NCBI GenBank assembly: GCA_963706285.1
Contig: CAVPLU010000012.1
Coordinates: forward strand, 64,001 to 128,000
Direction: 5' to 3'
DNA: 64,000 nucleotides
Source of the DNA: Candidatus Bathyarchaeota archaeon
GTDB taxonomy: Archaea > Thermoproteota > Bathyarchaeia > 40CM-2-53-6
The notes under the pieces are model-generated. The model saw nothing but the letters and a program-made list of their open reading frames with translations. It had not been told where the DNA came from and made no database searches. Every line of letters starts with the position of its first letter. Position 1 is the first letter of the stretch. A program made the translations under genes and the position numbers. Of this stretch, positions 10,233 to 64,000 are shown in pieces.

Positions 10233-10333
10233 GGGCGGGTATAGAAAGGGCAGTTTCTCCCGATGCCTAGCCAGGATAGGGCACAGGCCTCCGGAGCCTG
10301 GAGTCGCGGGTTCGAATCCTGCCCCGCCCGCCA
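10233..10333 (+). tRNA. tRNA-Arg(CCG) with a 23-nt BHB intron at position 9/10 (10242-10264); CCA encoded
   Basis: Spliced cloverleaf: GGGCGGG TA|GCCT AGCCAGGATA GGGC A CAGGC CT-CCG-GA GCCTG GAGTC GCGGG TTCGAAT CCTGC CCCGCCC G CCA; strict BHB at the junction. Confidence 0.93.
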
Positions 10334-17726: not shown

Positions 17727-17828
17727 TGGAGCCGGGGGTGGGAGTCGAACCCACATTCTGCGGCTCTGCAGGCCACCGCCTGAACCGTTCGGCCTTCGGT
17801 GGTCACATCAGTTGTGACCAACCCCGGC
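17727..17828 (-). tRNA. tRNA-Cys(GCA) with a 26-nt intron at position 8/9 (17820-17795); CCA encoded
   Basis: Spliced: GCCGGGG T|G GCC GAACGGTTCA GGC G GTGGC CT-GCA-GA GCCGC AGAAT GTGGG TTCGACT CCCAC CCCCGGC T CCA; intron hairpin GGTCACA/TGTGACC with relaxed BHB. Confidence 0.92.
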
Positions 17829-62181: not shown

Positions 62182-62927
62182 TTGCGTTCTTGCTCTTCGC
62201 TGCTCGCCCGATTCTGAGACTTGGCAAAGTCGCCTGTACTGCCTTGACTATGGGCGGGGTAAGCACCAGTAGGAACGGGATCTCAGACAAGTAGGTCCAG
62301 AGCGTGGTTCCGTATGCGAAGACGATCGGCAGAGGGCTAGAACCCAGACCCAGAACTTGAGGCATCACAAACAAAGAGCTGTACGCGACTAACCCGAATC
62401 CGATTATGAGGCTTCCTAACGCGAGCCCGATTGACGAAGCCGCTTGCACATCCGCCCAAGACGAGCGCGCCAGATAAGGCACGGCGACCAGCGCGACCAC
62501 AAGGGCACTGATTCCCGGCGAGAATTGACAATGTTGACCCCGAAAGACGCGTACACGCCGTACGCCGCTATGATGATCGGAGCCGCAATGCCTGCAATGA
62601 TATTTCCGTATCTTGCTGCACCTTTCAGCGACCTTTGGAGAGAAATCCTAGAACACTGAATGCGACAAAGTTCGATGGCACACCGACGAGAAGACTGAGG
62701 AGCGCGTCGTGATGACCGTAGACTACGTCGGCGATGAAGATTCCAACTGCTGCACCTACGCCGCCGACCCATGGCCCAAAGAGAACCGCGAACGCGCCAG
62801 GAACAAAGACTTGGGGCCAGAATCTAACCCCGAAGAGAGTCGGAAGCGAGGCTGACAGTACACCCAAAGCGGCGTATAGCGCCGCGTTGAGGGAGGCCGT
62901 GGCTACCTGTAGTGCGGTCTCTCTCAT
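62174..62927 (-). CDS. ECF transporter S-component (QueT-like); frameshifted
   Basis: AALYAA, GVRFWP, VLFGPWVGGVGAAVGIFIAD; coupled to pantoate kinase. Confidence 0.78.
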
Positions 62928-63303
62928 CTCAAATCGTCAGAGGCACGAGGCGCATATGCCTTAACACTTCCCTAGAGACACTGGGCATGTCTCCAAAGTG
63001 TATATAGAATGGATTTCAGCATTTCCACTGGAAATCGACGAGCGCTAGGACCACCGCGCCGCATCCTTTCTGTCTGAACTTCGATGAGCTCCAAGCGCGT
63101 TTTGATTACTTTTGATGGTGAGTTGCTGCATCTTCGCGACATCTGGAGCTTCCATGATAACAATTCCGAATTCTGCGAATCCACAGTGACCAGAGAGTGG
63201 ACACTCGCTTTTTCGCGCCCAGTCGCAAGTCATCAACACTGCGGATCAAGAAGATCCGGATGTGAAGGTTTTTACGGGCACAAGCGCTCTCAACTGTTTG
63301 CGT

Positions 63304-63468
63304 AGCCCGGTGGTGTAGCGGTCAAACAGCCTAATGGACTAGGCATAGCAATGGCGCCAGACCAATGAGGCCACTAGATGGCTCTGGATCCCGCACTAGG
63401 AGAAGAAACCTGCCGACGGGAGTTCGAATGGTTCGTTAGAGAACCCGAACATCTCCCCCGGGCTACCA
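63304..63468 (+). tRNA. tRNA-Gln(CTG) with four introns: 63326-63342 (21/22), 63351-63379 (29/30), 63388-63407 (37/38), 63429-63451 (59/60)
   Basis: Removing 17+29+20+23 nt leaves a 76-nt cloverleaf AGCCCGG TG GTGT AGCGGTCAA|GCAT A GCA|GG CT-CTG-G|A CCTGC CGAC GGGAG TTCGAA|T CTCCC CCGGGCT A CCA; each junction has a BHB or BHB-like motif. Confidence 0.88.
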
Positions 63469-64000
63469 TCAACCACCGCCATTAGATTAGAGGTGGTTTC
63501 TCATCAGGGCAATCAACGCCATGACCCACGCCTTTCCGGCGTTGATGAGAACTCTCAAAGCGGCCCCTCTTTCCCGGAAAGCGGCCCCTCTTTGGAGGAT
63601 GTGATCAAGCACCATGCTAGCGGTCCACCACCTAGACGGCAACAAGTGCAATCTTCTACCCGTGGAATCTGGCTCAACTGAGGACTCTCCTGCTGTGACG
63701 AGCCTGGCGTGACTCAAATCCATGCATCTGAACCCAAAGACATCATTATGCTTCCAAGAAACCGATTAGCTACGCACTAGCCCGTTGACGCTTCTTCTTC
63801 ATCACAAGTGAGAGGCCCGCAACACCCAATATCACTGCCACAATTGTCGCAACAACCATCGGCATTTGCAGCAGGTCTAGGGACCATGGACCACCGTTCG
63901 ATGTCGTTCCTGTCTCTGTCTGAGTTTGATACTGACTTCTCACAAAATAGTAGATGCCGTCCGATCCTAGTGCGGCTACGATGCAGCATGCATTCCCTGA

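Follow-up and report, generated by a model that had tools for sequence, protein, structure and literature searches.

A tRNA-Gln(CUG) gene with four introns in a Bathyarchaeia genome

Can a tRNA gene that is interrupted four times be the working gene of an organism, and by what route would its inserts be removed? This question is raised by a 165-nt stretch of a Bathyarchaeia MAG, located close to the end of the window (the whole stretch of DNA analysed here, 64,000 nt). Judging from the sequence and its relatives, we consider it very probable that this stretch is a working tRNA-Gln(CUG) gene, apparently the only one of the genome, and that its four BHB introns would be removed by EndA.

Gene layout, splice motifs and folding

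Rereading the sequence reproduced the layout proposed in the initial annotation. When four inserts of 17, 29, 20 and 23 nt (89 of the 165 nt, as that annotation had counted) are removed, exons of 22, 8, 8, 21 and 17 nt join in silico into a 76-nt tRNA with an encoded CCA, and the introns fall at positions 21/22, 29/30, 37/38 and 59/60 in Sprinzl numbering (Table 1). ARAGORN agreed, reading the joined exons as tRNA-Gln(ctg) with a full cloverleaf, 76 nt long with a 22-nt exon 1; a 75-nt version with a 21-nt exon 1 received the same verdict. The 22-nt exon 1 is the correct one, because relatives lacking intron 1 read ...GGTCAA straight into exon 2. In the product, the acceptor arms AGCCCGG/CCGGGCT are followed by the discriminator A73 and CCA, and the 7-nt anticodon loop CTCTGGA carries U33, CUG at 34-36 and a purine at 37. 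The product also has the A1-U72 pair, which is an identity element of the archaeal Gln pathway.

Table 1 Coordinates of the tRNA-Gln(CUG) gene and associated features (window positions unless a contig or locus is named).
Feature	Location	Strand	Description
Promoter-like box, GAAGG plus TTTTTA	63264..63275	+	A/T hexamer begins 35 nt 5' of the tRNA
tRNA-Gln(CUG) gene	63304-63468	+	165 nt; encoded CCA
Exon 1	63304-63325	+	22 nt; Sprinzl 1-21; acceptor 5' strand, positions 8-9, D-stem 5' strand, D-loop
Intron 1 (21/22)	63326-63342	+	17 nt; relaxed BHB
Exon 2	63343-63350	+	8-nt micro-exon; Sprinzl 22-29; D-stem 3' strand, position 26, anticodon-stem bases one to three
Intron 2 (29/30)	63351-63379	+	29 nt; CCAGA in loop
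Exon 3	63380-63387	+	8-nt micro-exon; Sprinzl 30-37; anticodon CTG at 34-36
Intron 3 (canonical 37/38)	63388-63407	+	20 nt
Exon 4	63408-63428	+	21 nt; Sprinzl 38-59; anticodon-stem 3' strand, 4-nt variable loop, T-stem 5' strand, T-loop 54-59
Intron 4 (59/60)	63429-63451	+	23 nt; strict hBHBh'
Exon 5	63452-63468	+	17 nt; Sprinzl 60-76; T-loop 60, T-stem 3' strand, acceptor 3' strand, discriminator A, CCA
Exon 5 with downstream flank	63452-63674		Flank length varies among copies, about 140-205 nt
Further copy of exon 5 and flank	C4:264519-264679		3' of the Gln(UUG) gene
Further copy of exon 5 and flank	C3:122445-122669	-	Starts exactly at the exon 5 start (3' splice site)
Further copy of exon 5 and flank	C18:10363-10573	-	Starts exactly at the exon 5 start (3' splice site)
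Dispersed repeat	about 63521-63616		Holds AAAGCGGCCCCTCTTT twice
tRNA-Gln(UUG) sister gene	C4:264371-264535	+	165 nt; introns of 25, 21, 20 and 23 nt at 10/11, 21/22, 37/38 and 59/60
Partial tRNA match	10265-10322	+	Model positions 10-63; by eye Arg(CCG), loop CTCCGGA
Partial tRNA match	17738-17794	-	Model positions 9-63; by eye Cys(GCA), loop CTGCAGA
RtcB gene (G000)	C4:105729-107043	-	Split over two overlapping frames
GTP-dependent PEP carboxykinase gene	L165:2892-4902 = C12:130291-132301	-	Split over two overlapping frames

The box upstream of the gene (Table 1) is promoter-like in its position and its conservation. In five of the seven CUG genes of the organism's own genus, g1 (G000, G001, G003, G006 and G008), AAGGTTTTTAC lies 33-35 nt upstream, and those of G004 and G009 carry AAGGTTATTA instead, farther upstream. 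We report the genus-level box alone; a regex tally of TATA-like hexamers (18 of 76 genes) was too crude for use.

For the splice motifs, we applied a fixed rule. The first bulge consists of two terminal exon bases and intron base 1, the central helix pairs the four exon bases before that bulge with intron bases n-5 to n-2, and the second bulge holds the final two intron bases and base 1 of the following exon. All four inserts show this 2+1 bulge geometry, or its relaxed form, exactly at the required boundary, with 4/4, 3/4, 3/4 and 4/4 central pairs and inner helices of 2, 4, 3 and 5 bp for introns 1-4, and the helices quoted in the initial annotation are present at every junction. Intron 1 has a fully paired central helix (GGTC/GACT) and lacks an outer helix, whereas the BHB of intron 4 is strict, with TTCG/CGAA as central helix, GGTTC/GAACC as inner helix and the T stem as outer helix. 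The central helix of intron 2 (ATAG/CTAG, inner TGGC/GCCA) contains one A-G mismatch, and that of intron 3 (CTCT/GAAG, inner TCC/GGA) a C34-A mismatch. Cutting intron 3 at 38/39 yields an identical product.

As a chance control, every same-length placement on both strands of the 64-kb window was scored, and placements of equal or better geometry were counted. They numbered 359 of 127,940 for intron 1 (0.28%), 389 of 127,916 for intron 2 (0.30%), 994 of 127,934 for intron 3 (0.78%) and 16 of 127,928 for intron 4 (0.01%). When the boundaries were shifted from -6 to +6, the real boundary scored best for all four introns and every shift was worse. The first intron had been described as ambiguous, with a placement of the same length at 24/25 as an option. 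We discarded this placement, since the +3 shift leaves just 2/4 central pairs and the relatives without this intron (G003 and G008) join exon 1 to exon 2 at 21/22.

The folding of the precursor gave an uneven picture. The MFE structure (-60.3 kcal/mol) holds the acceptor stem and the BHB of intron 4 and none of the other three BHBs, and a structure containing all BHBs reaches -34.9 kcal/mol. We also modelled splicing intermediates as all 15 combinations of already-removed introns, using an energy model that ignores the enzyme: the central helices of introns 1-3 had a mean pair probability of at most 0.03 in all 15 states, and the intron 4 BHB one of 0.94-0.99 in the modelled states. Since folding disfavours the BHBs of introns 1-3, their formation would rely on the enzyme or on a co-transcriptional folding path.

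A short pairing in the same region deserves attention. The CCAGA in the loop of intron 2 complements anticodon-loop bases 33-37 (TCTGG, within 63381-63387) and is paired in the precursor MFE. It occurs in the loop of all 29 of the 29/30 introns in CUG genes of family f1, compared with 0/6 in other families. Because the CCAGA-bearing sequences share ancestry, and shuffling the intron core gives a 5-nt match in 9-25% of trials, the pattern is a lead and not a result. By keeping the 37/38 BHB in check, CCAGA might impose an order on splicing and prevent simultaneous cleavage of the two introns on either side of the 8-nt anticodon exon.

Detection, host genome and splicing enzymes

The gene escapes the usual finders. 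ARAGORN returned 0 genes on the 64-kb window, and Rfam at gathering scores missed the Gln(CUG) gene and returned two other partial tRNAs only; these two, which resemble Arg(CCG) and Cys(GCA) by eye (Table 1), each have position 8 separated from the acceptor 5' strand by an insert of about 27-34 nt. With E up to 10, the only Rfam match in 63200-64000 was a chance-level sR16 match (63741-63800, minus strand). Gln(ctg) is also absent among the 26 calls made by ARAGORN -i on the whole genome, and the Gln(ttg) call among them, at C4:371614-371726, belongs to a different tRNA with acceptor GGGCCGG. The MAG contains a second Gln-type gene, a UUG sister, and the Rfam tRNA model, run on the MAG with E up to 10, found neither of the two; ARAGORN also misses the sister. 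The 13 full-length Rfam tRNA matches over the cut-off span 88-129 nt, compared with the 71 positions of the model, which indicates that those genes are interrupted too. An automated annotation of the ARAGORN/Rfam type would list this organism as being without glutamine tRNAs, and since the finders miss both Gln genes, the tRNA counts by which the quality of Bathyarchaeia MAGs is judged are too low.

The inserts are also present in contigs from other public runs. The stretch 63150-63441 is matched by a 398-nt contig of run X4 with 2 differences, and 63365-63519 by a 155-nt contig of run X2 with 3; jointly they cover all four introns, although they count as only partly independent support, as one of the runs may be the source sample. 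The public runs listed for 62300-64000 include no RNA run, and the one RNA run from the sample of a listed run (X21, Nanopore, 74 million letters) contained no match to the locus, a result that counts neither for nor against splicing.

By drawing its comparison from the Thermoproteales, the initial annotation had implied that lineage, and this assignment fell away. The six best genome hits of a neighbouring 315-aa protein, at 63-69% identity, are all Bathyarchaeota or Bathyarchaeia MAGs. The MAG itself comprises 2.13 Mb in 21 contigs, with 89% completeness and 7.5% contamination.

Two EndA genes (PF01974) are present in the genome, with scores of 87.9 and 44.8 bits. The one on contig C12, in the region of C12:149004-149243 (186 aa), has as its closest solved chains 2cv8_A, 3p1z_B, 3ajv_B and 2zyz_B (E 4e-40 to 4e-31), which we take to be catalytic subunits of crenarchaeal heterotetramers. 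The one on contig C6, in the region of C6:75200-75433 (174 aa), is divergent, with 5x89_A as its best match at 3e-23 and weak matches to NEQ261 and PAE0789. Two such unlike subunits would fit an EndA of the alpha-beta type (alpha2-beta2 enzyme). A gene for RtcB is present as well, and its two overlapping frames (Table 1) recall those of the GTP-dependent PEP carboxykinase. Both cases are frameshifts or assembly indel errors and call for caution on single-base details of this MAG.

Gln genes in relatives and in the same genome

To place the gene among its relatives, a DNA search covered this genome (G000) and 60 relatives, and matches were obtained in 59 of the 61 genomes. We examined 80 loci, comprising 20 returned by the search and 60 chosen from its table, and parsed them by spliced alignment to the 76-nt CUG product. 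The full gene was recovered from 76 but not from L015, L135, L164 or L108, the last of which is truncated where its contig ends. For nine of the 76, all UUG genes belonging to genera g2 and g3, alignment to the CUG product led to parses with poor BHBs and a product of 74-75 nt. We counted these nine as doubtful and left them out of the site statistics, which use the 67 cleanly parsed genes. ARAGORN recognized all 76 spliced products as tRNA-Gln; run without intron mode on the 76 unspliced genes, it called any tRNA in only three, of which two were uninterrupted and one was a miscall.

The CUG gene was recovered from 42 of the 61 genomes (43 genes). Thirteen of these genes carry four introns, 14 carry three and 16 carry two, with none below two or above four. 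The four-intron genes come from the organism's own genus (G000, G001, G004, G006 and G009), from six genomes of genus g4 and from two further families; three of the 13 (G031, G035 and G040) have one weak motif. Four introns were also seen in 7 of the 33 parsed UUG genes, and the UUG gene of this very genome is built in the same way. Four introns are thus the local norm and not an outlier.

Within the genus g1, seven CUG genes give an identical 76-nt product from four intron layouts: 21/22 + 29/30 + 37/38 + 59/60; 21/22 + 29/30 + 37/38 + 53/54; 10/11 + 29/30 + 37/38 + 53/54; and 29/30 + 37/38 + 53/54. The first layout is shared with G001, whose sequence is 94% identical over the 271 nt searched. 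Across one order, at least seven insertion sites are well supported, namely 10/11, 20a/20b, 21/22, 24/25, 29/30, 37/38, and 53/54 or 59/60.

The splice motifs are maintained across these genes. At least 3/4 central pairs were present in 187 of the 190 introns of the 67 cleanly parsed genes. At site 21/22 (26 introns), the central helix is 4/4 in 22 and 3/4 in 4, and the inner helix has at least 2 bp in 25, with 12 distinct inner-helix sequences. At site 29/30 (35 introns), 33 have at least 3/4 central pairs and 34 an inner helix of at least 2 bp, and at 37/38 all 59 introns have at least 3/4 central pairs. The exons are conserved while the intron sequences vary, and the inner helices covary, as in GGTTC/GAACC, GGCTCG/CGAGCC and GGCAT/ATGCC at 59/60 or CCAC/GTGG, GGAA/TTCC and CTC/GAG at 21/22. 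One UUG gene (L117, G019:C36) has a 37/38 intron of 170 nt, compared with 14-28 nt in the other 58 genes.

For each of the four introns, some Gln gene lacks the insert and is continuous exactly across the junction we predict. The intron at 21/22 is missing from G003 and G008, and the relatives without it have a normal 9-nt D-loop. It is missing as well from the loose contig ends of X1 and X2, two runs whose contigs match from 63343 onward and carry GTGTAGCGGTCAA or GCGGTCAA immediately before that position. Site 29/30 is empty in CUG genes of families f2, f6 and f9, site 59/60 in G003, G004, G006, G008 and G009, and site 37/38 only in UUG genes (G025, G031, G033, G035, G043 and G051). The tRNA-Gln(UUG) genes of G043 and G051 are uninterrupted and 76 nt long, and they differ from the product of the window at 4 and 6 of 76 positions, respectively, including one anticodon base; positions 29 and 41 change jointly, and the 29-41 base pair covaries across orthologues.

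In the MAG, two Gln-type genes were found, the CUG gene of the window and the UUG sister gene, all four central helices of which are 4/4. The initial annotation had advised looking for another tRNA-Gln(CUG), and our search of the MAG found none; at 89% completeness and 7.5% contamination, the only copy means the only copy found. Other spans with Gln-type acceptor ends (C4:75464 on both strands, C8:111789 and C16:21589) reached 13-34/152 against the product and were dismissed as chance.

The comparison of the two genes bears on the origin of intron 4. This intron is identical at 22 of 23 positions to the 59/60 intron of the UUG gene and at 18 of 23 to that of the G001 orthologue, and the other five parsed CUG genes of genus g1 (G003, G004, G006, G008 and G009) have an intron at 53/54 instead of 59/60. 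The likeness between the CUG and UUG genes extends ~140 nt beyond the CCA. Taken together, the near-identical intron, the 53/54 site of the congeners and the shared flank, two further copies of which start right at the 3' splice site, point to an arrival of the intron through recombination or with a mobile 3' cassette. The sequences suggest that the T-loop intron of the CUG gene was freshly copied from the UUG sister gene, by recombination between the sisters.

Exon 5 and its downstream flank have three further genomic copies, with 82-95% identity (Table 1). They may derive from a small mobile cassette or be att-like remnants. A Pfam scan found no integrase among 14 neighbouring ORFs, and no second copy of the 3' exon was found farther along C12. 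A split or permuted tRNA was rejected: all pieces of the CUG gene are collinear, on one strand and within 165 nt, and the C3 and C18 fragments have no CGAA strand ahead of their exon-5 copy. Part of the flank is occupied by a short dispersed repeat, which recurs in partial form 14 more times, spread over 10 contigs of the MAG, and shows a very high contig depth in run X2 (up to about 3000) and no Rfam match.

Proposed splicing, alternatives and known systems

We propose the following course of maturation. Transcription from the BRE/TATA-like box about 35 nt upstream would give a precursor of ~165 nt, in which each insert would form a BHB or relaxed BHB with the neighbouring exon: the last six exon bases would supply one 4-nt helix strand and two bulge bases, and the 3' end of the intron the other strand. 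The two-subunit EndA of the alpha-beta type would cleave both bulges, and RtcB would ligate the exons into the 76-nt tRNA with its encoded CCA. The introns are probably removed sequentially and not together, because a free 8-mer (exons 2 and 3) would be lost.

It seems unlikely to us that EndA removes only some of the inserts, with introns 1-3 processed otherwise or in a strictly dependent order and intron 1 perhaps kept as an enlarged D-loop. The folding, which predicts the BHB of intron 4 alone, would be compatible with such a course, and so would the absent outer helix of intron 1 and the mismatches in introns 2 and 3. However, at shift 0 the 2+1 bulge geometry is exact for all four introns, and the same sites in relatives show 4/4 central helices and covarying inner helices. 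Moreover, the D-loop has its normal 9 nt wherever the site is empty, and the alpha-beta EndA takes relaxed motifs at non-canonical positions, according to the excerpt of PMC4033280 on which we draw.

That the gene has fallen out of use, as a redundant copy or a decaying pseudogene, is more improbable still. Its invisibility to ARAGORN and the Rfam tRNA model, together with the incompleteness of the MAG, could be read in this way, but seven genes of genus g1 have kept identical exons despite differing introns, the 29-41 pair covaries across orthologues, conservation extends to the promoter-like box, the MAG yielded no other CUG gene, and the four-intron layout recurs in 13 genomes. That the inserts are an artefact of assembly or binning and absent from the real DNA is hardly credible. 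The 7.5% contamination and the at least two genes in two frames, a hint of indel errors, give some ground for this suspicion; against it, the inserts recur in contigs of two other public runs with 2-3 differences, and G001 shares all four introns in its 94% identical stretch. The working four-intron gene remains our strongly preferred reading.

A broader reading is that the tRNA-Gln family of the Bathyarchaeia offers a live example of rapid intron turnover, of intron arrival by way of a sister gene or cassette, and of splicing ordered by CCAGA; we regard this combination as speculative. The census of this one gene in 61 genomes is a clean data set on intron gain, loss and replacement with the mature product unchanged.

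As for the published record, a maximum of three introns per tRNA gene is stated in the 2014 review PMC4033280 and also in the preprint version of tRNAscan-SE 2.0 (10.1101/614032, 2021), as far as the excerpts of both go. The initial annotation had called four introns exceptional on the strength of such a maximum and had advised a literature search. Four does exceed the published three, and our search found no report of an archaeal four-intron tRNA gene. The claim does not stand beyond that: a preprint of October 2026, of which we cite a part, describes up to five intervening sequences per tRNA gene in Asgard archaea, and four introns are common in the present lineage. A four-intron tRNA gene is therefore striking but no longer a record. 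No paper describing multi-intron tRNAs in Bathyarchaeia was found (PMC7714728 has a footnote mention, and others were judged by title), and 'Bathyarchae' is absent from the part of the Asgard preprint cited here. The Bathyarchaeia form a third archaeal group with such genes, beside the Thermoproteales, with three introns as their published maximum, and the Asgard archaea, with five in the cited part of the 2026 preprint.

The gene resembles the multi-intron tRNA genes of the Thermoproteales (Pyrobaculum, Thermofilum, Caldivirga) in its short protein-spliced introns at canonical and non-canonical positions, in having several introns per gene with a BHB or relaxed BHB at every junction, and in the predicted two-subunit EndA. 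It differs from them in having four introns, where the cited excerpts of PMC4033280 and 10.1101/614032 give three at most, in belonging to another class, the Bathyarchaeia, and in its two adjoining 8-nt micro-exons. These adjacent micro-exons raise a concrete and testable question of splicing order, for which the red alga Cyanidioschyzon merolae provides a precedent. Its nuclear tRNA genes, too, are interrupted by BHB introns, located at 37/38 and within the D-arm and T-loop, and RT-PCR revealed stepwise intron removal ordered by BHB stability, as reported in the excerpt of PMC3728597. The alga is a eukaryote with three introns at most, according to the same excerpt, and its splicing order is experimental, whereas that of the Bathyarchaeia Gln(CUG) gene is inferred. 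The Asgard archaea, although of another phylum, show a further likeness. Introns occur in 92-95% of the tRNA genes of three Asgard genomes, more than half of them with several, in the portion of PMC11291895 (2024) used here. As in the Bathyarchaeia gene, the inserts lie at many non-canonical sites, up to five per gene in the cited part of the 2026 preprint, and the Asgard sources, as excerpted, likewise describe standard finders overlooking many of the interrupted tRNA genes.
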